A DNA stretch of 64,000 bases from a virus. The notes beneath the pieces are model-generated. The model ran no database searches. It saw only the letters and a list, made by a program, of their open reading frames with translations, and had not been told where the DNA came from. Numbering within the stretch: position 1 is the first letter of the stretch; every line of letters starts with the position of its first letter. Of this stretch, positions 16,399-56,934 are shown in pieces. Where the stretch lies: positions 96,001-160,000 of IMG/VR virus record IMGVR_UViG_3300023174_000050; one strand, written 5' to 3'. Both the position numbers and the translations under genes were made by a program.

Positions 16399-16871
16399 TG
16401 GACAATCTTTACTACAAATATATAAAACTAGTATCAGGGGATGGTATAATTTGTACTACCTTTGATAACTATGAAAATTTATATGATTTAAAAACCATAA
16501 AGGTATCAACCCCTGTGGTATTAAATCCTATTCGCATCCCTAGGGGAGATGTTTTAGTAGAATCTTACATAATGTATCCTTGGTTTAGTTTTTCAGAAGA
16601 AACAGAATATACATTACCCACAACGCAAATTTTATTTGCAGTGAATATTAAAGAAACTTTAAAGAAAAATTATTTAACTTATCTTTCTAATAGAGAAGAT
16701 GAGGGTGAAGATGAACTTATAGACGATGATGAATTTGAAGAAGATGAAGAACTTTTTAATGCACTTTTAAATACCCTAGGAGATGAAATACATGAAGACA
16801 AAGAAAACCAAGAATCCGGAGACGGATCTAATATTGAAAGAGTTGGAAGAACTACAAGAAGACTCCACTAA
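16395..16871 (+). CDS. Hypothetical protein with acidic tail between uvsW and gp55
   Basis: IKLVSGDGII N-terminus (Sm-like start); position typical of T4-like phages. Confidence 0.65.
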   Translation: MMDNLYYKYIKLVSGDGIICTTFDNYENLYDLKTIKVSTPVVLNPIRIPRGDVLVESYIMYPWFSFSEETEYTLPTTQILFAVNIKETLKKNYLTYLSNREDEGEDELIDDDEFEEDEELFNALLNTLGDEIHEDKENQESGDGSNIERVGRTTRRLH

Positions 16872-17421
16872 AACTAAACAACCCGCGCATTACGTAGATA
16901 ACAAAAAATTCTTAGCTGCTCTTATAGATTATAAAGCAAGTATAGATGCGGCTCGCGCAGAAGAAAAACCTACCCCACAGGTACCCAAATATATCGGCGA
17001 ATGCTTTATAAAAATTGCTACTCATTTATCGTATAAATCTAATTTTATAAATTATACTTTTAAAGATGATATGATTTCAGATGGAATTGAAAATTGTCTA
17101 ACTGCAGCTACAAAATTTGATCCAGCCAAATCATCAAATCCATTTGCATACTACACTCAAATTATTTACTTTGCCTTTATTCGCAGAATACAAAAAGAGA
17201 AAAAACATCAGGCAACCAAATACAAAATTATTGAGAATTTAGATTTAGATTCCATTATTCAAAATAGTGATGATTCGGATGCAAGTAGACAACTTGTAGA
17301 CTATTTGAAAAAACAATTGGACAATATTGATCCTGAGAAACGGGAAACTCCCTCAGAAACCAAAACAAGAAAAAGAAAATTAACAGAAAAAGATCAAACT
17401 ATTGTTGACTTCATGAACTAA
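16792..17421 (+). CDS. gp55: Late-transcription sigma factor gp55
   Basis: HYVDNK, FINYTFKDDMISDGIENC, NPFAYYTQIIYFAFIRRIQKEKK. Confidence 0.95.
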   Translation: MKTKKTKNPETDLILKELEELQEDSTKTKQPAHYVDNKKFLAALIDYKASIDAARAEEKPTPQVPKYIGECFIKIATHLSYKSNFINYTFKDDMISDGIENCLTAATKFDPAKSSNPFAYYTQIIYFAFIRRIQKEKKHQATKYKIIENLDLDSIIQNSDDSDASRQLVDYLKKQLDNIDPEKRETPSETKTRKRKLTEKDQTIVDFMN

Positions 17422-17464: not shown

Positions 17465-17743
17465 ATGAATGATTCTAAAAAAGAAGTCATGCTTATTCTT
17501 CAAGAAGAATGCGCAGAAGTGACACAGGCAATCTCAAAATGTTTACGTTTTGGAATAGATGGTGAATATAATGGTGCTACTAATCGAGAAAGATTGACTG
17601 AGGAAATCGGTGATCTTATAGCAATGATTGAACTATGCTACGATAACGACATTGTAGATTACTTACAAGTCAAAGAAGCACAGCATAGAAAATTTGATAA
17701 ATTAAAAAAATGGTCTACAATATATGAAACTGAAAATATCTGA
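17465..17743 (+). CDS. MazG-like nucleotide pyrophosphohydrolase
   Basis: QEECAEVTQAISK and EEIGDL motifs. Confidence 0.8.
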   Translation: MNDSKKEVMLILQEECAEVTQAISKCLRFGIDGEYNGATNRERLTEEIGDLIAMIELCYDNDIVDYLQVKEAQHRKFDKLKKWSTIYETENI

Positions 17744-18569
17744 ATTATTTTATAGTATACAAGGTGAGGGTCGCTTTATGGGCGTCCCTTCTATCTTTTT
17801 AAGAACCTTTGGTTGCAATTTTACTTGCGGTGGTTTTGGAATGCCAAAGGGACAAATGAGTGAAGAAAGGTCAAAAATAAATGCAACATCTTTTAAGAAT
17901 TATCGGGATCTTCCTTTGGTCGATACTGGGTGCGATAGCTACGCTAGTTGGGATGTCAATTTTAAGCATCTTAGTCCCGTTATGGACATTCAAAGTATCG
18001 TTACAAGAATATTAGCAGAGTTACCGCACAAAGAATGGAAAGATGAGCATCTAGTAATTACTGGGGGCGAACCTTTATTAGGATGGCAAAAAGCATATCC
18101 CGATTTATTGGAATATAAAGGAATGCGAGATCTTGCCGAGCTTACTTTTGAAACTAATGGTACTCAAATGTTAAGTGCAGATTTTGAGGAATATTTATTT
18201 CAAGATTGGACTAGATTTGGTCGCAGATATAGTAATCTAACATTTTCGGTTTCTCCTAAATTATCTGTATCTGGGGAGAAATGGGAAGACGCAATTAAAC
18301 CAGATGTTGTGTCTCAATATCAAAGTGTAGGATATACCTATTTGAAATTTGTAGTAGCAACAAAAGAAGATGCAGAAGAAGCAGAGCAAGCAGTAAATGA
18401 ATATCGTAAAAAAGGTTTTGGCGGTCCTGTTTATCTTATGCCTCTTGGTGGCACCGAGCAGTTGTACTCTCTTAATAATCGGGCGGTGGCAGAATTGGCA
18501 TTGCGAAAAGGTTGGAGGTATTCCGATAGATTACAGATCCCATTGTTTAAGAATGCCTGGGGAACATAA
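17724..18569 (+). CDS. queE: 7-carboxy-7-deazaguanine synthase QueE (radical SAM)
   Basis: SELFYSIQGEG, FLRTFGCNFTC, ITGGEP, FETNGT, SVSPKL. Confidence 0.93.
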   Translation: MKLKISELFYSIQGEGRFMGVPSIFLRTFGCNFTCGGFGMPKGQMSEERSKINATSFKNYRDLPLVDTGCDSYASWDVNFKHLSPVMDIQSIVTRILAELPHKEWKDEHLVITGGEPLLGWQKAYPDLLEYKGMRDLAELTFETNGTQMLSADFEEYLFQDWTRFGRRYSNLTFSVSPKLSVSGEKWEDAIKPDVVSQYQSVGYTYLKFVVATKEDAEEAEQAVNEYRKKGFGGPVYLMPLGGTEQLYSLNNRAVAELALRKGWRYSDRLQIPLFKNAWGT

Positions 18570-18576
18570 ATACTAA

Positions 18577-18633
18577 TGCTACACAAAGGTAGCGAATTTC
18601 AATCATCACATCCGCGTAAGGAAGGATTCAAAA
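18577..18633 (+). promoter_or_regulatory. Candidate structured leader upstream of folE
   Basis: GCTAC/GTAGC hairpin, then TCC-GCGTAA-GGA or ATCC/GGAT pairings that cover the AGGAAGG SD; CATAAATA at 18565-18572. Confidence 0.4.
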
Positions 18634-19314
18634 ATGTCATACAACAAAACAAAAACTGACCCTGAACTTGGTCTAAAGGTTCACGAACATCTTGTCAAAA
18701 TGGGTGTTGAAACGCCATATGAAGATAATGATATAGATCGCAAAATTAAAATTGAACTTATAGAAAAAGCTTTTAGTACAATTATGCGAACACTCGGATT
18801 GAATTTATCTGATGATAGTTTAATGGAAACTCCTAATCGTGTTGCTAAGATGTATGTTAACGAAATCTTTTGGGGTTTAGATTACGATGCTTTTCCAAAA
18901 TGTACAACCGTCGATAACAAGATGAAGTATAATGAAATGGTATGCGAGCGTAATATTAATGTACAATCCAATTGCGAGCATCACTTCGTAGTTATTGATG
19001 GGCTTGCTACTGTGGCATATGTTCCTAAAGATAAAGTTTTAGGTCTTTCTAAAATTAATCGTATTGTAGAATATTTTAGTAAGCGTCCTCAGATTCAGGA
19101 AAGATTGACTGAACAAGTATTTCATACATTACAATATATTCTTGATACAGAGGATGTTGCTGTTATGATTGATGCACAACACTATTGCGTTAAGAGCCGA
19201 GGAGTTGAAGATACTGGTAGTTCTACAGTTACAGTAAGATTAGGCGGTGGATTTAAAAATGATCCTGCTGCTAGAAATGAATTTTTAAGTATTGCAAGAA
19301 TGGGTAAAAAATGA
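18634..19314 (+). CDS. folE: GTP cyclohydrolase I FolE
   Basis: ETPNRVAKM, CEHH, GLSKINRIV, RPQIQERLT, CVKSRG. Confidence 0.97.
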   Translation: MSYNKTKTDPELGLKVHEHLVKMGVETPYEDNDIDRKIKIELIEKAFSTIMRTLGLNLSDDSLMETPNRVAKMYVNEIFWGLDYDAFPKCTTVDNKMKYNEMVCERNINVQSNCEHHFVVIDGLATVAYVPKDKVLGLSKINRIVEYFSKRPQIQERLTEQVFHTLQYILDTEDVAVMIDAQHYCVKSRGVEDTGSSTVTVRLGGGFKNDPAARNEFLSIARMGKK

Positions 19315-19820
19315 CAGTTAATATAATGGTTGACTTAGAGACAATGTCAACAAGATCACATGCAGCCATTTGTTCAATTGGTGCAGTAAAATTTGAAGGT
19401 AAAGAAATACTTGATACTTTTTATTGCACTGTGGATATTAAAACTTGTAAAGATGCAGGAATGCATATTTCAAAAGATACCGTTAAGTGGTGGTCAGAAC
19501 AAAATAAAGAAGCACTACGAGAACTTACTCGTAACAATATTCCTTTGGATGAGGCATTAACAAGTTTTGAGGAATGGTTCGGTCCTAAGAGTTTGCCTGT
19601 ATGGGGCAATGGTGCAGTGTTTGATAATACTATTTTAGCCAATGCATATTTTAACACTGATAGAGAACCACCTTGGAAATGTTGGGATGATCGTTGCTAT
19701 AGAACAGTTAAGGCATTATTCCATTGGGTGCCTGCAGATGCAAGAGAAGGTGTTTATCATAATGCCTTAGATGATGCAATGCACCAAACTAAACATCTAA
19801 TTAAAATATTAGGTGAATAA
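19311..19820 (+). CDS. DEDD-family 3'-5' exonuclease
   Basis: MVDLET, WGNGAVFD, HNALDDA. Confidence 0.85.
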   Translation: MTVNIMVDLETMSTRSHAAICSIGAVKFEGKEILDTFYCTVDIKTCKDAGMHISKDTVKWWSEQNKEALRELTRNNIPLDEALTSFEEWFGPKSLPVWGNGAVFDNTILANAYFNTDREPPWKCWDDRCYRTVKALFHWVPADAREGVYHNALDDAMHQTKHLIKILGE

Positions 19821-21187
19821 TGAAAACTTATCATAAGCGTATTGCCTTTTGTTTAAGTGATCAACATACTATTCCTCATGGTGGTCTAGGGCAATTTGCC
19901 AAATCCTTTATTGAGAATTTTGTTCCGCTTGGATATAAAGTAGATATTATATCTGATAAACCTACATCCAATATTGACTTCAAAGCGTATCTAGAAAGTC
20001 AAGGTGCAAATTTTGTTTATCCTTCGGATGTTCGACCATATAGTACACATACCAAAACATTCATGTTTGAGGATTCCTATAACTTTGAAAAGATGAGTAA
20101 TTTTAGAGATGCTATGATGAAAGCTCTAAACACAAATCTATATGATATTATTATTTGTAATACATTAGAATCCTTTCCGGGGATTTATGCTTTAAACATT
20201 CACAAATCAATTCAAGTTATTTACTATACTCACAATGAAAGTATGGTGTTCTTAGATGATAGAACATGGAAGAATGAATTTACAGAATCATTTAATGAAT
20301 TGTTCAATGCATTAATGAAGGTCAAAGGTATAACCATTGGTACACAAACTCTAAGAAATAATTACGAACTTCAAGCACATGGTATTACTAACTCATATGA
20401 ACTTCCTATTCCAATGACTGAAAAAAGTTTATTGGTCGAACATAATAAACCAAGAGAGGGTGTTTTATGGATTGGTCGTTGGGAACCAAGAAAGAATCCC
20501 GAGGAGTTTATTCGTGTAATTAAAGAAACAGGATTGCCTGCAAAAGTAATTACTAATACTAATGGTGCCAAAAAATTTGAAGAAGCCCTAAAAGCAATAG
20601 GTGCTAAATATGAAATAAGGATAGGTGTATATGGTCAGGAAAAAGTTGACTTTATAACAAGTGCTCGAGTTGCATATAATCCTGCAATTAGAGAAAGTTT
20701 TGGATTAGCATTTTATGAATGTATGGGTCATTTACCTACTGTTGCTATAACAGGTATGTCCTGGTTAGATAACTTTGGCAGACACTGGTATTTTTGTGAG
20801 GATAAGAAAAATATCCCATCTTTAATAACTAAACTATATGAAGATTTTGAAAAGTCTGAAGTTTGGTATAGTAAAAATCCATTACATAATATTATTACAC
20901 AACATGAAATGGGTATACAAGCATGGATAGATATTTTTAATTCGTTCAAACCGGTCGAATCAAATTCTATCAGAGCAACGATTAATGAATATTCGGAAAT
21001 TGAATATTCCGAGTTTATTAAAATACTAAATAGGAAAGATTTGTCTATAGATGATGTTAAATCTGTATTGACAAATAAGTACAAATATAATATAATTTAT
21101 ACTGATACGAGCACATACCTATCAAAAGATCCAAACTTTGTACCTAAAGAAAAAGAAACAACTAATTTAGAAAGTCTATTCGCATGA
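19820..21187 (+). CDS. GT-B (GT4-like) glycosyltransferase with C-terminal extension
   Basis: PHGGLGQF, IGRWEPRKN, ESFGLAFYE (E-x7-E); ends LESLFA. Confidence 0.85.
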   Translation: MKTYHKRIAFCLSDQHTIPHGGLGQFAKSFIENFVPLGYKVDIISDKPTSNIDFKAYLESQGANFVYPSDVRPYSTHTKTFMFEDSYNFEKMSNFRDAMMKALNTNLYDIIICNTLESFPGIYALNIHKSIQVIYYTHNESMVFLDDRTWKNEFTESFNELFNALMKVKGITIGTQTLRNNYELQAHGITNSYELPIPMTEKSLLVEHNKPREGVLWIGRWEPRKNPEEFIRVIKETGLPAKVITNTNGAKKFEEALKAIGAKYEIRIGVYGQEKVDFITSARVAYNPAIRESFGLAFYECMGHLPTVAITGMSWLDNFGRHWYFCEDKKNIPSLITKLYEDFEKSEVWYSKNPLHNIITQHEMGIQAWIDIFNSFKPVESNSIRATINEYSEIEYSEFIKILNRKDLSIDDVKSVLTNKYKYNIIYTDTSTYLSKDPNFVPKEKETTNLESLFA

Positions 21188-22473
21188 GCAAAATTTTAGA
21201 ATATGTTATATCTGGTCCTGCATATTTGCGATTAGGTGCAGAACAATGTAATGACCCCGAAACCTTGCAGATGATTCTAGACTTAATTAATAAGACAGTA
21301 CATAAAAAGAACAACCATGAATTTTCTTTATTATATAATGGTTTTACAGAAAAGAATTTCGGTAAAAAATTACAAAAATTTAGACCTGCTATTAAAAATA
21401 TTCATGCTGACTCTGGTGGTTTGCAGATTATTACGCGCGGTCTCCAAAATACGCCTGAGACTCGTAATAAGGTTTATGAGAATCAAGGTGGTTTTGCTGA
21501 TATAGGAATGGCATTTGATGAGATTCCCGTTAAGTCTACTTCTGCAAGTGGCACATCTGCAAAGATTGATACCAAGCGTAGATATGTTGATACGGAAAAT
21601 TTTGAGTCGTATGCGAGAGCAACAGGCAAGAATGTTAAAGATCAAATTTTAAAATTTGATTCTATGAAAAGTAATTGTAGACCCTTTGCTATTTTACAGG
21701 GTTCAGGTGCAGACACTTATGCCAAATGGGCAGAATGTATGTTGGATGAGATTCCAAAAGAACTACATTCTCGCATTGGCGGTGTGGCTATGGGATCAGC
21801 TGCGTTAGGTATGGGGCCACTTGAAGATGTTAAACGAGCATTTTATGTTAATGCTGTTCCATTTGAGAGACCATTTCATTTGCACGTATTGGGAGTTGGG
21901 GCACTTAAACGTATTTTACCTTATCTATTATTTAGTCAAACTGGTCTATATGAAGGCGTAGATATTTCGTATGACTCTACTACACATTCTATGTCATTAG
22001 ATAATGGATTATTTTATTTCTCACACTGCAAGAAAAATAGTCCAAGTGATTATGGCGGTTCTTCTGTTAAGATGGGAAGAGAATATTCTAACATCTATAG
22101 AACAGTAACTGAAGAAATTAATAACGTATGCGGAACAGACTATACTCCAGAACAATATCATAAACTAATGAATATTGCAGTAGGCGAGTATATTGAAAAG
22201 GGTGGAAAATTTATAGATGTGATGAAAGCGCGTCTATCTTTTATTCTAACTAATGTTCATAATTTTACAATGGATGTTTCTGAACTAATGAATTCTAAGG
22301 AAAACTTCTTAAGATTCTGCAGAGATAAAAATTGTGAGAATGAATATTCTACATTATTTGACGTAAAAACCACAGAGGATTTTCTATACTGGGAAAAGCA
22401 TGTTGGTAAATTTATGGATTCGGAGCCAGTCAATTCTGTAGCTCCATCATCACTAGAGGACTTATTTGCATGA
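21184..22473 (+). CDS. dpdA: DpdA-like TGT-family DNA 7-deazaguanine transglycosylase
   Basis: HADSGGLQ, AFDEIP, ILQG, HLHVLGVG, SYDSTTH TGT-barrel motifs; located in the que cluster; ends LEDLFA. Confidence 0.82.
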   Translation: MSKILEYVISGPAYLRLGAEQCNDPETLQMILDLINKTVHKKNNHEFSLLYNGFTEKNFGKKLQKFRPAIKNIHADSGGLQIITRGLQNTPETRNKVYENQGGFADIGMAFDEIPVKSTSASGTSAKIDTKRRYVDTENFESYARATGKNVKDQILKFDSMKSNCRPFAILQGSGADTYAKWAECMLDEIPKELHSRIGGVAMGSAALGMGPLEDVKRAFYVNAVPFERPFHLHVLGVGALKRILPYLLFSQTGLYEGVDISYDSTTHSMSLDNGLFYFSHCKKNSPSDYGGSSVKMGREYSNIYRTVTEEINNVCGTDYTPEQYHKLMNIAVGEYIEKGGKFIDVMKARLSFILTNVHNFTMDVSELMNSKENFLRFCRDKNCENEYSTLFDVKTTEDFLYWEKHVGKFMDSEPVNSVAPSSLEDLFA

Positions 22474-22862
22474 GTATGTTTACATTAAATAAAAGTTATA
22501 TCTGGGTAACCTTTCGTAAAGAAGGTATCCATAAGTATCCTGCTGCCGCAACTGATCCAAAGTTGGCTACAGGCGATTGGTTGGATGTTTCCTTTTTAGG
22601 TACGCCTCATAGGCATATTTTTCATTTTAAAGTTGAAATGCAAGTGTTTCATGATAACAGAGATGTGGAATTTATTCAGGCAAAGCGTATTATGGAACGA
22701 TGGTATTCTGATGGCACATTACAATTAGATCATAAATCATGCGAAATGATGGCAAGAGAATTGTATGCCAAATGTCTTGAGCAATGGCCCTCAAGATGTT
22801 ATACTATAGAAGTATCAGAAGATGGTGAGAATGGTTGTAGACTTGTTTTTGAGGAAAGATAA
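22470..22862 (+). CDS. T-fold QueD paralogue, DpdL-like (putative CDG decarboxylase)
   Basis: LGTPHRHIF (LxxxHRHxF), SCEM, VSEDGENG; directly after dpdA. Confidence 0.65.
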   Translation: MSMFTLNKSYIWVTFRKEGIHKYPAAATDPKLATGDWLDVSFLGTPHRHIFHFKVEMQVFHDNRDVEFIQAKRIMERWYSDGTLQLDHKSCEMMARELYAKCLEQWPSRCYTIEVSEDGENGCRLVFEER

Positions 22863-24043
22863 TGGGTAAATTATATTATATGGGTTTAGAGCCCTATGAA
22901 GGTAGATACACACTACAGTTGCAGCAATGGAACGAGGCAGCATTTAAGCGTCGTGGTATTGATTATGAAATTATTCATGGTGATACTTTAGATGATACTA
23001 AAGCTATTGTTACAGGACAAGTTCTTGATGCACATGGTCGCAGTTATTATTCTTTAACACAGATGGCGAATCTTGTTAAGAAAATGAAGGCAGGAGAAAT
23101 TACTTGGGAGGATAAAATTTTCTTTGAAGATATGTTTACTCCCGGTATTGAGGCATTGCCATATATTATGGATCAGGTTGAATGGCAATATAAACCTCAG
23201 GTATATGTTAGATGCCTTGCACAATCTATTGATCCCGACGATTTTCTCCATGTACATGGAATGAATAGATGGATGTCTTTATATGAGAAGATGACTATTG
23301 AGTTTGCAACTGTTCTTGCTTCCAATGAAGAAATGGTTGCCCATATGAAAATAGCAGGATGGGAAGTTCCAATTTATAATATTTCAGGATTGGCATTTGA
23401 CAAAAATGAAGTTCAAAGTCGTGTTGCAGAAATTAAACCATTCATTAATCGTAAAAAGCGAGTGGTGTTTGCTGCAAGATTTGATCAAGAAAAACAACCC
23501 GGTTTCTTTATGGATTTGGTAGAAGAATATGGTCAAGAACATAGAGATGTGGAATTTGCTGTTTTATCGGGTGGACCTTTACGTAGCAATGCGGAGCATT
23601 ATTTGGAAAGAGCAAGAGAATTAGAAAAGACTGCTAATTTTAAAATATACGAAAATCTTAAAAAGAATGAATACTATGAATTGCTTGCCGATTCTAGAGT
23701 ATTATTTAATTGTGCTTTGCAGGATTGGGTAAGTAATACAGCATCGGAAGCAGATTCACTGGGTACAAATTGTTTATATCCTGCGTATCGTTCTTTCCCC
23801 GAGACATTTGCTAATGATAATGAATGTTTATATATTCCTTGGTCTATGGAAGATGCTAAAGAAAAATTAGATAAACTATTAGTTACTCCTAGAAAAAATA
23901 TGGGTAAGTTATCAGACTGGACATCTGGTACTATTGATAGATGTCTAGATATTATGTTTCCGGATGCAGAGTTTGATTTAAGCTATCAGTGGTATAGAGG
24001 TGCAAATGATTATAGAAACTACACAAAAGAATCCAAATACTAA
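22862..24043 (+). CDS. GT-B glycosyltransferase
   Basis: FAARFDQEKQP, YYELLADSRVLFNCALQDWVSNTASEA (D-x7-E), LYPAYRSFPE. Confidence 0.8.
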   Translation: MGKLYYMGLEPYEGRYTLQLQQWNEAAFKRRGIDYEIIHGDTLDDTKAIVTGQVLDAHGRSYYSLTQMANLVKKMKAGEITWEDKIFFEDMFTPGIEALPYIMDQVEWQYKPQVYVRCLAQSIDPDDFLHVHGMNRWMSLYEKMTIEFATVLASNEEMVAHMKIAGWEVPIYNISGLAFDKNEVQSRVAEIKPFINRKKRVVFAARFDQEKQPGFFMDLVEEYGQEHRDVEFAVLSGGPLRSNAEHYLERARELEKTANFKIYENLKKNEYYELLADSRVLFNCALQDWVSNTASEADSLGTNCLYPAYRSFPETFANDNECLYIPWSMEDAKEKLDKLLVTPRKNMGKLSDWTSGTIDRCLDIMFPDAEFDLSYQWYRGANDYRNYTKESKY

Positions 24044-25046
24044 AGTTATCGTAACAGGTGCCGCCGGTTATATCGGTGGCGCTATTTGTATCGAACTTAA
24101 AAAACAGGGTTATACTGTTATTGGAGTTGATCGAAGAAAGCTACCAAAGCATCTTGAAAAGTATGTAGATACTTTTGTCAATGAATGTTTTACTCACCCG
24201 TTTTCCTTAGAACATCTTGAGAGTAATCCCATTGCAGTTATACATTGCGCAGGAACAAGTTTAGTTGGTCCAAGTATAGAAAATCCTTCGGAATATTATG
24301 ATAACAATGTAGCTAAAACTCTAAAGTATTTAGATTATATTCGTCGTTGGTCATCTATTACCAAATTTATTTTTAGTAGTAGCGCATCTGTTTATGGATC
24401 ACCTGATACCGCAGTTATATTTGAAGGAACAAGAACAGAACCCATTTCTCCATATGGTGAATCTAAATTAATGACAGAGAAAATGTTACATTGGTTTGAA
24501 AAGGCATATGGATTAAATTATGTGTCGTTTAGATACTTCAATGCCTGTGGTGCAGTTGAAGGTGGGCTACATGGACAAGAACCAGGGGCAACGCATATCC
24601 TTGCTAGATTATTTGAAGCTGCAATGTCAAAAGAAGATTTTACTCTGAATGGTGTAAATTTTCCTACACCTGATGGAACGTGTGTCAGAGATTATATTCA
24701 TGTTACTGATATTGCCAAAGCACATATCTTGGCTATTGAGGAAAATATCAAAGGGATATATAATATAGGATCAATAAAAGGTTATTCTAATTTAGAAATT
24801 TTTACGAAGGTTGAAAATTATCTAATAGATGAAGAGTTATTACATGATGGTATTATAATGCATGTCGAAAAAGCACGCGAAGGTGATCCCGCAATGTTAG
24901 TTGCAAATTCTGATAGATTACAAAAAGAATCTTCGTGGAAACCTGAAAGAAATATTGATACAATTATAGATGATCTACATGCATGGTATCTTTCGCCTGC
25001 ATATGAGAAACTACAAAAGAGGTCTCCGGCATTCACCCCTCTCTAA
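24006..25046 (+). CDS. galE: UDP-glucose 4-epimerase-like extended SDR
   Basis: TGAAGYIG, FSSSASVYG, YGESK, FRYFNACG, DGTCVRDYIHV. Confidence 0.9.
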   Translation: MIIETTQKNPNTKVIVTGAAGYIGGAICIELKKQGYTVIGVDRRKLPKHLEKYVDTFVNECFTHPFSLEHLESNPIAVIHCAGTSLVGPSIENPSEYYDNNVAKTLKYLDYIRRWSSITKFIFSSSASVYGSPDTAVIFEGTRTEPISPYGESKLMTEKMLHWFEKAYGLNYVSFRYFNACGAVEGGLHGQEPGATHILARLFEAAMSKEDFTLNGVNFPTPDGTCVRDYIHVTDIAKAHILAIEENIKGIYNIGSIKGYSNLEIFTKVENYLIDEELLHDGIIMHVEKAREGDPAMLVANSDRLQKESSWKPERNIDTIIDDLHAWYLSPAYEKLQKRSPAFTPL

Positions 25047-25086: not shown

Positions 25087-25563
25087 ATGACAAAATTTAT
25101 CTCAACAAAAACTTATAAACAAATAGGACCCGTAGCATATAGACAATGGAGAGCAGATAGTCACTGCAATCTAATTCATGGTTATGCTTTATCTTTTCAT
25201 TTCGAATTCGAATGTGATACTTTAGATGCTCGCAACTGGTGTATGGACTTTGGAGGATTAAAAGATCTAAAACATAATCTAGAAGATTGGTTCGACCATA
25301 CATTACTTGTAGCAGAAGATGATCCTAAACGTGAAGAATTACTACACTTAGGTAAAATTGGTCTTGCTAAAATTACAGAAGTTGAAAAGACAGGATGTGA
25401 AGGCATTGCAGATTTTTTATATGAATATGTAAATACAATTTATTTACCAATGTATGGTAAAACAGAAGCTGAAAGAATCTGGTGCTGCAAGGTTGAAGTA
25501 CGAGAAACAGATTCTAATATGGCAATGCGCGTAGGTCACAGGGAAGATAATGAATTCCAATGA
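25087..25563 (+). CDS. queD: 6-carboxy-tetrahydropterin synthase QueD
   Basis: SHCNLIHGY, MDFGGLK, FDHTLLV, TGCEGIA; GGAGG SD. Confidence 0.9.
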   Translation: MTKFISTKTYKQIGPVAYRQWRADSHCNLIHGYALSFHFEFECDTLDARNWCMDFGGLKDLKHNLEDWFDHTLLVAEDDPKREELLHLGKIGLAKITEVEKTGCEGIADFLYEYVNTIYLPMYGKTEAERIWCCKVEVRETDSNMAMRVGHREDNEFQ

Positions 25564-47479: not shown

Positions 47480-47770
47480 ATGATTAATTACAAATATAAT
47501 GAAGATGCTCTTTTAATAGAACTAAAAGAATATATTGATGCAACATATGGTCAGCATTATTCTCAAAATAAATTTCAAACAACTGAATTTATAATTGACA
47601 GCGGCCACGGTGTAGGGTTTACCGTTGGTAACATAATGAAGTATACCCAAAGATATGGAAAGAAAGCCGGAAGGAATAGACAAGACATACAAAAGGTGTT
47701 ACACTATGCTTTAATGCTGTTATATACGCATGACATTGAAACCAAGGAGCTATACAATGCAAATAAGTAA
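47480..47770 (+). CDS. Conserved T4-like protein (DUF3310-like)
   Basis: TYGQHY, GNIMKYTQRYGKK, KVLHYA; precedes gp45. Confidence 0.65.
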   Translation: MINYKYNEDALLIELKEYIDATYGQHYSQNKFQTTEFIIDSGHGVGFTVGNIMKYTQRYGKKAGRNRQDIQKVLHYALMLLYTHDIETKELYNANK

Positions 47771-48413
47771 TGAGACGATTCAAATTTTAAAGAACTTTGC
47801 TACAATCAATAGTAACATATTGATTCGAAAAGGCAAGGTATTATCAACAATTAGTACAGCAAAAAATATTTTTGCTCGTGCAGAAGTAACCGAGGACTTC
47901 CCTGAGGAGGTTGCGGTATATGATTTAAATTCTTTGTTGGCATTGCTGACATTAATGGAAAATCAAAATGTAGAATTTGGCGATAAGAGCTTAACCATTT
48001 CTAAAGACAATGGTAAGTTCGAATATTTTTATTCGGCACCAAATGTAATCGTAGCAGCCCCTGCTAAAGAAATTGAAATTGATACACACTATGAATTTAA
48101 ATTGACTGCAGAAGATGTTAATATGATTATGAAGGCATCTGCTATTACGGGTGCTCCAACAATTACAATTTCAAGTAAGGGTGAAAATGTAACCTTGACC
48201 GTTGGTGATAAAAAGAACGATACTGCAAATACCTATAAGAAAATTATTGGCACTAGTGAACATTCTTTTGATTGTCATATGGCAGTTGAAAACTTTAAGA
48301 TTGTTCCTGATGCATATAATGTTACAATCTCAAAGAAAAAGGCATTTCAGTTTAAACATGCGACAAAGCCACTGGGATATTTTATAGCAATGGAACCTGA
48401 TTCGGTGGTATAA
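47757..48413 (+). CDS. gp45: Sliding clamp gp45
   Basis: ETIQILKNFATINSNI, VYDLNSLL, YFIAMEPDS. Confidence 0.93.
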   Translation: MQISNETIQILKNFATINSNILIRKGKVLSTISTAKNIFARAEVTEDFPEEVAVYDLNSLLALLTLMENQNVEFGDKSLTISKDNGKFEYFYSAPNVIVAAPAKEIEIDTHYEFKLTAEDVNMIMKASAITGAPTITISSKGENVTLTVGDKKNDTANTYKKIIGTSEHSFDCHMAVENFKIVPDAYNVTISKKKAFQFKHATKPLGYFIAMEPDSVV

Positions 48414-48840: not shown

Positions 48841-49782
48841 ATGGATTATCGTGAAAATGAATTTTTGTGGGTTGAAAAGTATCGACCACGCAAATTAGAA
48901 GATTGTATTTTACCTGCAGATCAAAAGAACATCTTTCATGAGATGTTGGCTAAGGGTGAAATACAGAATATGCTTTTATGCGGCGGCGCAGGTATGGGCA
49001 AGACCACAGTTGCCCGAGCATTATGTGAAGAGTTAGAAACAGATTATATCATCATTAACGGTTCGGAAGAATCTGGTATTGATGTTCTTCGTACTAAAAT
49101 TAAACAGTTTGCATCTACTGTATCGTTCAGTGGTAAGCCAAAGGTTGTTATTTTAGACGAGGCAGACTATCTAAACCCTAATTCTACACAACCTGCATTG
49201 AGAGCATTTATAGAAGAGTTCTCAGCAAATTGTAGATTTATTTTAACCTGCAACTTTAAGAATAGAATTATTCCTCCACTTCATTCTAGAACTGCGGTTA
49301 TTGAATTTAAACTTCCGAAGTCTGAAAAGCCAAAGATTGCCGCAGCATTCTTTAAACGTGTTACGGAAATCATGGGCATTGAAAAGATTGATGCCGATGG
49401 TAAAGTAATTGCAAAAGTTATTGAGAAACACTTTCCCGATTATCGGCGAGTCTTGAATGAGCTACAACGATATTCAGCTTCGGGTAAAATTGACGAGGGC
49501 ATCTTTGTTAATCTAGGTGAGTCCAATATGCAAGAACTAATCTCATCTTTAAAAGATGGTGATTGGAAGAAAATGCGTACTTGGGTTGTTAATAATATTG
49601 ACAATGATCCCGGAACTATTTTTAGAAAACTATATGATACATTAACGGATCAGGTTAAACAGGTTCCGCAACTTATTCTTCTGCTTGCTGATTATCAGTA
49701 TAAAGCAGCATTCTGCGCAGATCAAGAAATTAATCTAGTAGCCTGCTTGACTGAGATTATGGCTGCGGTAGAATTTAAATGA
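48841..49782 (+). CDS. gp44: Clamp loader large subunit gp44
   Basis: LWVEKYRP, GAGMGKT, ILDEAD, PLHSR. Confidence 0.96.
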   Translation: MDYRENEFLWVEKYRPRKLEDCILPADQKNIFHEMLAKGEIQNMLLCGGAGMGKTTVARALCEELETDYIIINGSEESGIDVLRTKIKQFASTVSFSGKPKVVILDEADYLNPNSTQPALRAFIEEFSANCRFILTCNFKNRIIPPLHSRTAVIEFKLPKSEKPKIAAAFFKRVTEIMGIEKIDADGKVIAKVIEKHFPDYRRVLNELQRYSASGKIDEGIFVNLGESNMQELISSLKDGDWKKMRTWVVNNIDNDPGTIFRKLYDTLTDQVKQVPQLILLLADYQYKAAFCADQEINLVACLTEIMAAVEFK

Positions 49783-54444: not shown

Positions 54445-56934
54445 ATGAAGTTTTATACTAGCGTAAATCAGTATGGCAACAATATCCTTGTCCGTGGGAT
54501 AAATAACGGGCACAAAGTACAGGATAGGATTCCCTTTAAACCTACTCTGTATGTAAATTCTCAAAAAGAATCAAAATTTAAATCAATATATGGTCAGAAT
54601 CTTGCTCCTATAGAATTTAGCAGTATTAATGATGCAAAAGAATATGTCCAACAATATAAAGAAGTTGAGAATTTTTCAGTATTTGGTAATACAAATTTCG
54701 CATACCAATACATATCGTCAGCATTTAAAGATGATGTAGAATTTGATATTTCTCAAATGAAGATATGGTCATTGGATATTGAGACTACTGCAGACTTAGG
54801 ATTCCCCGATGTAGTGAACACTAATGAAAAAGTATTGTTGATTACCACACAAGATTACGAAACAAAACAAATTGTTACCTTTGGTTTACACCCCGCAAAA
54901 CCTGTTAGTGAAAAACATACTTATGTTCATTGTTCTGACGAAATAAGTTTACTAAAAGAATTTTTAGATTATATTTCTGAGGATCATCCTCATATTATTA
55001 CAGGATGGAATGTGGAATTTTTTGATATCCCATATCTATGTAATCGTATTACTAAAATTCTTGGCGAGGATGCTTTAAAGAAATTATCTCCTTGGAAAAT
55101 AGTAAATGAGAAACGTATTCTAAAATTAAAAAAAGAAAATGTTTCTTTCGAGGTAATGGGTGTAGCCATTCTAGACTATCTGGACTTGTATAAAAAGTTT
55201 ACATATAATGCACAAGAATCTTATAAGTTAGATCATATTGCTAAGGTTGAATTGGGTAGCGAAAAATTATCATATGATGAATATGATTCTTTTACTGCAT
55301 TTTATAAAGGCAACTGGCAAAAGTTTGTAGAGTATAATATTCGAGATGTAGAAATTGTTGACCAACTTGAAGATAAGATGAAATTGATTGAACTTATTCT
55401 TACAATGGCATATGATGCCAAGTGTAATTATATTGACATTTTCTCTGCAGTAAGAACTTGGGATTGTATTTTATATAATCAACTACTAAAGAAAAATATT
55501 ATTGTCCATCAAAGAGAGGATAAGCCCGGTAGACAAATTGCAGGAGCATATGTTCAAGAACCTAAACCGGGAAAATATAATTGGGTGGTTTCATTTGATG
55601 CAACAAGTCTGTATCCTAGTATTATTATGCAATATAATATGTCTCCAGAAACACTTGTTAATAATCCAAAACACTTTGATATACAAATTAAAGATCTTCT
55701 AAAAGGCGATGATTTATCTGATCTAACAGTTAAAGATTATTGTATGGCATCTAATGGTAGATGTTTTACAAGAGATAAACAAGGCATCTTTCCTGAGATT
55801 GTTCAAAAGTTATTTGACGATAGAAAGCAATACAAGAACTTGATGTTGGATGCACAAGCCGAATATGAGAAAACAAAGAATCCAATTTGGCAAAAAGAGA
55901 TATCAAAATATAACAATTTTCAGATGGCTAGAAAGATTCAAATGAATTCTTTATTTGGTGCCTTAGCCAATGAATATTTCAGATTCTATGATTCTAACAT
56001 TGCGGAAGGTATCACTTTAACCGGCCAATATATTATTCAGAAAGTCGGTAGAGATTTAGATACATACTTGAATAAAGTTTGCGGAACAAAAGATCATAGC
56101 TATTCTTTTTATTCTGATACTGATTCTTGTTATGTTACCTTCGCACCTCTTGTAGAAAAATTCTATAAAGGAAAAGATCCAGAAAAGATTGTAGACATTC
56201 TTGATGAAATCTGCGAGGGAAAGATTCAAGAAATTCTAAATAAGAGTTGTAATGAAATTGCAGAGTATACTAATGCGTTTGATAAGAAGATTTATTTTAA
56301 ACGAGAAGCAATCGCAGAAACAGGAGTATGGGTTGCGAAGAAACGATATGCTTTAAATGTTTATAATAATGAAGGGGTTAAATACTCAGAGCCCAAGCTA
56401 AAGGTTATGGGATTGGAGATTGTAAGATCTTCTACCCCTGAACCTATTAGAGATGGTTTGCGAAAAGCAGTTAAATTGGCTTTGACTTCTGATGAACAGA
56501 CTCTTCAAGATTATATTCGAGGATTTGAGACAGAATATAGAAAAATGAAACCTGAATTGATATCTTTTCCTAGAAGTGTTAACGGATTGGATAAATATAC
56601 AGATAGAGCCAATATATATAAACAGGCTACCCCGATGCATGTCAGAGGGGCACTATTATATAATTTTTATCTTGACAAATATGATCTAGGTAAAAGATAT
56701 GAAAAGATTAAAGAAGGCGATAAAATTAAGTTTATTTATTTAAAAGAACCAAATATTATCGGTGAAAATTGTATAGCATTCAATACTATTATACCCCCTG
56801 AATTAGATCTGATTAAGTACGCAGATTATGATACTATGTTCGAGAAATCATTTCTGGAACCTATGAATACAATATTAGATGGAATAGGTTGGTCTGCTAA
56901 ACCTCAAGCAACATTAGAAGGATTATTCGGATGA
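54445..56934 (+). CDS. gp43: Family B DNA polymerase gp43
   Basis: DIET exonuclease, SFDATSLYPSII, KIQMNSLFG, YSDTDS; ends LEGLFG. Confidence 0.98.
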   Translation: MKFYTSVNQYGNNILVRGINNGHKVQDRIPFKPTLYVNSQKESKFKSIYGQNLAPIEFSSINDAKEYVQQYKEVENFSVFGNTNFAYQYISSAFKDDVEFDISQMKIWSLDIETTADLGFPDVVNTNEKVLLITTQDYETKQIVTFGLHPAKPVSEKHTYVHCSDEISLLKEFLDYISEDHPHIITGWNVEFFDIPYLCNRITKILGEDALKKLSPWKIVNEKRILKLKKENVSFEVMGVAILDYLDLYKKFTYNAQESYKLDHIAKVELGSEKLSYDEYDSFTAFYKGNWQKFVEYNIRDVEIVDQLEDKMKLIELILTMAYDAKCNYIDIFSAVRTWDCILYNQLLKKNIIVHQREDKPGRQIAGAYVQEPKPGKYNWVVSFDATSLYPSIIMQYNMSPETLVNNPKHFDIQIKDLLKGDDLSDLTVKDYCMASNGRCFTRDKQGIFPEIVQKLFDDRKQYKNLMLDAQAEYEKTKNPIWQKEISKYNNFQMARKIQMNSLFGALANEYFRFYDSNIAEGITLTGQYIIQKVGRDLDTYLNKVCGTKDHSYSFYSDTDSCYVTFAPLVEKFYKGKDPEKIVDILDEICEGKIQEILNKSCNEIAEYTNAFDKKIYFKREAIAETGVWVAKKRYALNVYNNEGVKYSEPKLKVMGLEIVRSSTPEPIRDGLRKAVKLALTSDEQTLQDYIRGFETEYRKMKPELISFPRSVNGLDKYTDRANIYKQATPMHVRGALLYNFYLDKYDLGKRYEKIKEGDKIKFIYLKEPNIIGENCIAFNTIIPPELDLIKYADYDTMFEKSFLEPMNTILDGIGWSAKPQATLEGLFG

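Follow-up and report, generated by a model that had tools for sequence, protein, structure and literature searches.

T4-family bacteriophages carry short hydrophobic-acidic peptides at the C termini of the DNA polymerase gp43 and of gp55 and gp33, and these peptides are interchangeable epitopes for binding the sliding clamp gp45; the gp55 epitope stands on a divergent, mutation-tolerant linker (PMC2988020). In the T4 record the three proteins end in ...KASLDFLFG (gp43), ...SPSLDFLYEAND (gp55, tail SLDFLYEAND) and ...NTLDFLL (gp33). An LDFLF peptide of T4 DNA ligase binds gp45 as a short amphipathic helix with a dissociation constant of 10.7 μM (PMC6212786). T4 alpha-glucosyltransferase was reported as a gp45 binder (Sommer et al. 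2004), which a 2026 pull-down confirms, and beta-glucosyltransferase does not bind; the 2026 study concluded that the ratio of alpha to beta glucosylation is set by expression strength, not by clamp contact (PMC13216743). Enzymes of the DpdA2 subfamily insert preQ0, preQ1 or 7-carboxy-7-deazaguanine (CDG) into DNA, as shown experimentally, with activity demonstrated for phages nt-1 and VH7D; phages with DpdA2 modify <0.1% of their G, and the insertion has been described as post-replicative, no more (PMC10516641). Full-text literature searches returned no relevant paper linking DpdA or 7-deazaguanine to a clamp. Here we describe a window of 64,000 nucleotides, bases 96001-160000 of the 190,131-bp IMG/VR virus record IMGVR_UViG_3300023174_000050 (36% G+C; rated complete), in which a glycosyltransferase (GT1) and a DpdA2-like DNA 7-deazaguanine transglycosylase (DpdA) end in the same kind of peptide as the phage's own family-B DNA polymerase (Pol). 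The window also encodes a gp45-type clamp, a gp44-type clamp loader, UvsX, a DnaB-like helicase and a gp55-type late sigma factor, a replication gene set of T4 type.

GT1, DpdA and Pol end in ...KETTNLESLFA, ...APSSLEDLFA and ...PQATLEGLFG, respectively, with one residue after the F in each. These open reading frame (ORF) translations bear out the earlier note on this DNA, which had quoted the endings as TTNLESLFA, SSLEDLFA and ATLEGLFG and had reported a second glycosyltransferase (GT2) to be free of the motif; GT2 ends in TKESKY. The positions that it attached to the three endings, those of the tails in Table 1, span only the six-residue core LExLF[A/G] and not the quoted eight or nine residues, a minor slip. 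The tails are matched to the form [S/T]-L-[D/E]-x-[L/F]-[F/Y/L] as N-L-E-S-L-F (GT1), S-L-E-D-L-F (DpdA) and T-L-E-G-L-F (Pol). The whole genome has 936 six-frame ORFs of 40 amino acids or more, and no other than these three ends in LExLF[GA]. The pattern LE.LF was seen four times in 244 non-overlapping ORFs (58,818 amino acids), three of them one residue from the C terminus, a register at which chance predicts 0.017 occurrences of LE.LF and 0.037 of L[DE].[LFM]F (Poisson P for three or more, ~8e-6). A chance origin of the shared ending is excluded. Recent copying of the DNA is also ruled out, because the three genes write the tail in different synonymous codons: tta gaa agt cta ttc in GT1, cta gag gac tta ttt in DpdA and tta gaa gga tta ttc in Pol.

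The peptide is conserved beyond this genome. In loci of IMG/VR relatives, collected through DpdA, [S/T]LE[S/D/E/A]LF followed by one residue is kept in 56 of 56 DpdA and 50 of 50 GT1 orthologues (68-94% and 50-91% identity, respectively), and the 6-10 residues before the motif vary freely. A wider check of the 120 best database homologues per protein, limited to 112 full-length sequences for GT1, found the tail in 113/120 for DpdA and 104/112 for GT1, down to ~40-50% identity. Conservation in orthologues was one of the points on which the earlier note had made its reading depend, and the motif passes this check: no close orthologue has lost it, and nearly all of these more distant homologues retain it, over a divergent linker. 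In the DpdA alignment L424 is invariant, F428 is present in 62/63 sequences, L427 in 57/63 and E425 in 55/63; in the GT1 alignment F454 is invariant, with L453 in 52/53, L450 in 49/53 and E451 in 43/45. Linker columns beside the motif show 2-3 bits of entropy and indels in both alignments. Among 22-23 different DNA sequences of the tails, codons for Leu (TTA, CTA, CTT, CTG, TTG, CTC), Glu (GAA, GAG) and Phe (TTT, TTC) vary and the residues are constant, which indicates selection at the peptide level. The last tail codon is nearly always NNA in GT1 and DpdA orthologues; the last residue is left free because the stop overlaps the next ATG, so that its codon is NNA. In this phage the GT1, DpdA and Pol genes all end in NNA-TGA, with the stop overlapping the following ATG (21182-21187, 22468-22473 and 56929-56934).

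DpdA and GT tails track the tail of the cognate polymerase in more than 20 genomes. Synechococcus phage BUCT-ZZ01 uses the F-F form in Pol (TLDDFFS), DpdA (SLDSFFD) and GT1 (SLEDFFND) alike. Five other phages were compared, each with no GT1: Pol and DpdA end in SLDDLFE and TLDELFE in Acidovorax phage ACP17, in SLESLFG and SLEELFG in Xanthomonas phage X1, and in SLEDLFG and SLDDLFG in Stenotrophomonas phage Mendera; in Pseudomonas phage pf16, Pol ends in SLEDFFS and DpdA in the degenerate TLDLMCA, and in Vibrio phage KVP40, Pol ends in TLESFFG and DpdA is without a tail (...EFPAFKEQE). A distant glycosyltransferase of phage X1 (28% identity) has no tail and is improbable as a GT1 orthologue. 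Twelve further IMG/VR genomes, whose polymerases are 57-94% identical to that of this phage over the C-terminal third, pair Pol ending in [S/T]LE[G/D]LF plus one residue with DpdA ending in [S/T/N]LE[D/E]LF plus one residue or none. GT1 orthologues of a second clade (43-49% identity) come from contigs of 72-524 kb, which include several jumbo genomes of 335-524 kb (L086, L092, L096, L111). GT1 of this clade ends in ...LFEGL, ...LFSW or ...LFDFA and Pol in ...TFDDLFSFG or ...LFSLA, with two or three residues, one of them hydrophobic, after LF in both proteins. No DpdA2-type gene was detected in the jumbo-phage genomes that carry GT1, GT2 and p130 (a conserved protein encoded between DpdA and GT2), in a search of limited sensitivity. 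The 524-kb genome (G009) has two copies of the polymerase, one close to either end, which may reflect a terminal repeat or a concatemer made in assembly.

Sequence searches gave no Pfam, NCBIfam or PDB profile match for DpdA, so its identification required a fold search. An AlphaFold2 (AF2) model built from a 63-sequence alignment has a mean predicted local distance difference test score (pLDDT) of 91.2, with 71 over residues 421-429 and a short helix predicted at 424-428. The best 50 Foldseek matches of this model are all tRNA-guanine transglycosylases (TGT), with Zymomonas mobilis TGT first (E value 5e-10, probability 1.00, TM score 0.5-0.6), and the modelled DpdA has a TGT fold. D76-S-G-G-L-Q81 and Y263-D264-S are invariant in the alignment and resemble, in sequence, the motifs DSGGFQ and FDCV of TGT enzymes, which makes them candidates for the catalytic Asp motifs of the TGT superfamily. 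By tblastn, DpdA is ~31% identical (E ~1e-46) to homologues in KVP40, phi-Grn1 and phi-ST2, the latter two of which encode the validated DpdA2 type (PMC10516641). DpdA2 of Vibrio phages (nt-1, VH7D and phi-Grn1; PMC6884629, PMC10516641) comprises the closest characterized relatives, with which the locus shares a TGT fold and a FolE/QueD/QueE neighborhood; this phage's DpdA likewise lies near FolE, QueE and QueD-like genes. Two differences stand out: KVP40 DpdA, of the same Vibrio-phage group, is without a clamp-type tail, and the present genome is without QueC.

GT1 is, as modelled, a two-Rossmann GT-B fold of GT4 type. A Pfam scan (E ≤0.01) returned only PF00534, PF13439 and PF13692, with Glycos_transf_1 and Glyco_transf_4 below their cut-offs (21.7 bits for PF00534, cut-off 26.4). 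Its AF2 model has a pLDDT of 91.4, which falls to 65 and then 50 across the final 15 residues, with a short helix at 450-454. Foldseek matched it to MshA, sucrose-phosphate synthase (SPS), BshA, WaaG and TarM (E 1e-11 to 1e-9); the matches are generic, one being a pterin glucosyltransferase, and the fold therefore does not reveal the acceptor. GT1 does not belong to the T4 alpha-glucosyltransferase family: PF11440 has no match in the same Pfam scan, and the T4 enzyme is absent among the Foldseek matches listed.

A presumed receptor for such tails, the gp45-type clamp, is encoded in the window. By phmmer it can be aligned over its full length with RB69 gp45 (1B77/1B8H, 5e-20) and T4 gp45 (1CZD, 3e-18); its start is probably Met10, at position 47757. 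The polymerases of relatives keep ATLEGLF[GSA]. The gp55-type tail is far more variable than those of Pol, DpdA and GT1: the homologue here has a looser hydrophobic-acidic end, ...TIVDFMN, and those of relatives end in ...PTIDLLT, ...NPLDLDD or ...VVDFFP. The earlier note had taken as established that T4-family gp43, gp55 and gp33 bind gp45 through SLDFLF-like tails; the T4 record gives the sequences and the binding is documented (PMC2988020, PMC6212786). As in the T4 and RB69 clients, [S/T]-L-D/E-x-L-F stands here at the extreme C terminus behind a divergent, flexible linker, and the same phage's polymerase is also tailed. Position 4 is G, S or D here and F in T4, and the carriers are a TGT-family base-exchange enzyme and a GT4-like glycosyltransferase instead of replication or transcription factors. 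T4 ligase (EPEGLDFLFD) illustrates that an LDFLF-type motif is portable among DNA enzymes, and the GT1 and DpdA tails are likewise predicted to be short helices; unlike them, the ligase motif is internal, in a loop. The pairing of tailed GT1 with tail-less GT2 parallels the clamp-contacting and non-contacting glucosyltransferases of T4. Unlike GT1, T4 alpha-glucosyltransferase belongs to another glycosyltransferase family and ends in ...FKEQFDIITK, with no polymerase-type tail; its substrate is 5-hydroxymethylcytosine (5-hmC), and the genome here is without a ThyA/dCMP-hydroxymethylase homologue.

We consider it likely that the GT1 and DpdA tails are short linear motifs that bind in the hydrophobic pocket of the gp45-type clamp encoded by the phage itself, at the site used by the polymerase. 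We infer from sequence that both enzymes bind gp45 and act on nascent DNA: DpdA and GT1 probably travel with the clamp, modifying the DNA during its synthesis, and DNA becomes more likely as the acceptor of GT1, given its clamp-type tail and the gene order GT1-DpdA-p130-GT2-GalE. Each enzyme consists, as modelled, of a compact catalytic domain, a floppy linker of ~13-15 residues and the putative clamp motif. Clamps would be loaded at the fork by the gp44-type loader and would stay behind on the new duplex, carrying DpdA and GT1 along; the three pockets that a clamp offers would be competed for or shared, through their tails, by Pol, DpdA, GT1 and probably gp55. Tethered DpdA would then exchange G for a 7-deazaguanine base on the newly made duplex, and tethered GT1 would add a sugar, presumably onto that base. 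GT2, having no tail, would act untethered, as T4 beta-glucosyltransferase does. The outcome would be modification coupled to replication in place and time. The sequence-level tests all support the earlier note's reading that GT1 and DpdA ride the clamp, and they point to two families of DNA-modifying enzymes as probable new clients of the known T4-type clamp-docking system.

With such recruitment, the known clients of gp45 would comprise not only replication and transcription factors but also two families of DNA-hypermodification enzymes. How a phage DpdA finds the guanines of a genome that goes through replication and packaging in minutes would then have a concrete, testable answer. The tail argues for a glycosyltransferase that works on DNA, and in the genomes of T4-like phages it could be a simple marker by which DNA-acting enzymes are recognized from sequence. 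Because culturable relatives carry the same tails (BUCT-ZZ01, ACP17, Mendera and X1), the idea is directly testable. A short clamp motif brings DNA-modifying enzymes to newly replicated DNA in eukaryotes too, where DNMT1 and UNG2 carry PCNA-interacting protein (PIP) boxes that bind PCNA; there the clamp, motif and chemistry are different, and there is no homology. A bolder and rather doubtful extension is that tethering turns a normally inefficient DpdA2-type enzyme (<0.1% of G in the Vibrio phages without the tail) into a replication-coupled, high-density modifier and, with GT1, forms an ordered two-step line on nascent DNA that yields glycosylated 7-deazaguanine. If it held, that product would be a DNA base not yet described, and T4-like phages of fresh and marine waters, along with jumbo phages, would share a viral analogue of the maintenance modification that DNMT1 performs with PCNA.

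Ligands of the bacterial beta clamp (DnaN) carry QL[SD]LF-like motifs, and the core L-x-x-L-F of the tails resembles them, as does, more closely, the second GT1 clade, whose ...GLxLFEGL is nearer QLxLF. The tails might accordingly bind another shared partner, such as host DnaN or a phage single-stranded DNA-binding protein (SSB) or replication-factory scaffold. We regard this as unlikely, given that the spacing here is T4-like (L-acidic-x-L-F) and not QLxLF, that the window has genes for a full-length gp45 homologue and for its loader, and that the polymerase is itself tailed, the partner of the T4 and RB69 polymerase tail being gp45 (PMC2988020; PMC6212786). Slightly less probable still is a structural or regulatory C terminus unrelated to the clamp (a latch, an oligomerization element, or a degradation or localization signal), as may hold for the baseplate hub gp26, whose homologues across T4-like phages share G-[LI]-x-x-F-F (mostly GL[ED]xFF); the AF2 confidence of the tails, moderate and not very low, would suit it. 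What speaks against it is the presence of one peptide on two unrelated folds (TGT barrel and GT-B) and on the polymerase, behind variable linkers with indels, and the way the tail tracks that of the polymerase across clades. KVP40 DpdA, moreover, is tail-less, and yet the Vibrio-phage DpdA2 type is active in Escherichia coli (PMC10516641), which places the tail outside the fold.

A third account reads the similarity as chance or as a by-product at the DNA level, in which stops overlap the next ATG and the L-E-x codons are purine rich and Shine-Dalgarno-like. It draws on the gcATGa/ggATGa overlap at all three tail ends, with purine-rich stretches (GAAGGA, GAGGAC or GAAAGT) 8-13 nucleotides upstream, and on the final codon, which is nearly always NNA. 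Against this, three tails were observed where 0.02-0.04 are expected by chance, the L and F codons change synonymously over fixed residues, and the motif occurs without overlap in BUCT-ZZ01, X1 and Mendera (gaps to the next gene of 42, 71 and 35 nucleotides, respectively) and also in T4 gp43. The synonymous changes together with these non-overlapping cases rule out the Shine-Dalgarno/overlap constraint as sole cause; the overlap accounts only for the free last residue, and we consider the account largely refuted and highly improbable.

Several observations weigh against docking of the GT1 and DpdA tails on gp45 or limit what it would achieve. The tails of this phage do overlap the ATG of the next gene and a purine-rich stretch, so that some DNA-level constraint is mixed in. 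The look-alike G-[LI]-x-x-F-F ends the gp26 baseplate hubs of all T4-like phages checked, and the pattern alone is therefore no proof of clamp binding; these hubs are not known as gp45 binders. Co-variation of tail and polymerase rests on few independent changes, which makes it supportive, not decisive, and one 216-kb relative has less similar tails (Pol LLDFG, DpdA LELEF, GT FDDIF). The DpdA tail is degenerate in pf16 and missing from KVP40; since the KVP40 enzyme belongs to the Vibrio-phage type that was validated as DpdA2, DpdA catalysis does not require the tail. In T4, contact between alpha-glucosyltransferase and gp45 is not the main determinant of the glucosylation share (PMC13216743), and the clamp effect could accordingly be modest here.

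The modification cassette runs in the order QueE, FolE, Rv2179c-like exonuclease, GT1, DpdA, p130, GT2, GalE and QueD-like (Table 1). Searches of the whole genome found no QueC (PF06508), despite the FolE, QueD-like, QueE and DpdA genes, and no ThyA/dCMP-hydroxymethylase homologue (PF00303). From this gene content, CDG may be the base that is inserted, or the pathway may draw on host QueC, and 5-hmC is unlikely as the sugar acceptor of the glycosyltransferases. The position of p130 between DpdA and GT2 is constant in relatives, and a VSEDGE(N/S) motif near its C terminus is conserved; p130 may carry out an additional step in DNA modification. All relatives, BUCT-ZZ01 and the jumbo-phage clade among them, conserve the C terminus of GT2, YRNxxxE[ST]KY.

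Table 1. Positions of the genes and peptides discussed, numbered within the window unless marked otherwise.
Feature	Position	Strand	Basis or remark
Gp55-type late sigma factor	16783..17421	+	phrog_234, 1.4e-59
QueE and FolE, 7-deazaguanine precursor synthesis	17724..19314	+	NCBIfam matches
Rv2179c-like 3'-5' exonuclease, between FolE and GT1	19311-19820		PF16473, 1.6e-46
GT1, GT-B (GT4-like) glycosyltransferase, 455 amino acids	19820..21187	+	ORF; AF2/Foldseek fold
GT1 flexible linker, residues 437-449	21128..21166	+	Column entropy 2-3.2 bits, indels
GT1 tail LESLFA, putative clamp-binding peptide	21167..21184	+	Residue conservation; predicted helix 450-454
DpdA2-like DNA 7-deazaguanine transglycosylase, 429 amino acids	21184..22473	+	phrog_10773, 1.6e-96
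DpdA linker, residues 409-423	22408..22452	+	Entropy 2.8-3.1 bits at 417-419 and 422
DpdA tail LEDLFA, putative clamp-binding peptide	22453..22470	+	Residue conservation; predicted helix 424-428
p130, conserved protein between DpdA and GT2	22470..22862	+	phrog_17812, 1.3e-32; without Pfam match
GT2, second glycosyltransferase, without clamp motif	22862..24043	+	Ends TKESKY
GalE	24000-25046		
QueD-like gene	25087-25563		NCBIfam match
Gp45-type sliding clamp, presumed tail receptor	47730..48413	+	phrog_223, 8e-65; PF09116, 6e-7
Gp44-type clamp-loader ATPase	48841..49782	+	phrog_168, 4e-118; PF21328 (Gp44_lid)
Family-B DNA polymerase (gp43 type), 829 amino acids	54445..56934	+	phrog_262, E 0; PF00136, PF03104
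Polymerase tail LEGLFG, matching T4 gp43 LDFLFG	56914..56931	+	
Gp26-type baseplate hub, ends HLEGLQNFFV	69852-70544 of the genome, outside the window	-	phrog_150

C-terminal scans of other complete genomes returned few proteins. A strict scan of T4 found gp43 alone, and a looser one added gp55, gp33, the acidic gp32 tail and a few unannotated ORFs; an antisense T4 ORF ending in FLDFLLG is not an annotated gene and was set aside. A loose regular expression applied to BUCT-ZZ01, Mendera and ACP17 found Pol, DpdA, GT (in BUCT-ZZ01) and a gp26-type protein, together with one stray ORF each in BUCT-ZZ01 and Mendera and, in ACP17, a 567-amino-acid protein ending in ...RFDQLFSL and one short ORF. 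The gp26-type hubs of these three phages are 236-253 amino acids long and end in GL[ED]xFFx; T4 gp26 ends in ...RGLKEFFELL and KVP40 gp26 in ...RGIEDFFV.

Other proteins of this phage were considered as tail carriers and rejected. The motif was not fitted by SSB (...YFAKLAED), a ferredoxin-oxidoreductase-like auxiliary protein (...FMDDVLFQEK), an AAA ATPase of porphyrin-biosynthesis type (...AIDDEIPF) or a metallophosphoesterase (...YLPFVFEV). A glycine-rich structural protein at 63148-64155 (PF21722, phrog_2295) ends in ...NSLDFI; it is one of many fibre-like paralogues in the genome, and the resemblance is therefore probably a coincidence within this family. Many of these paralogues end in ...GTITF-type peptides.

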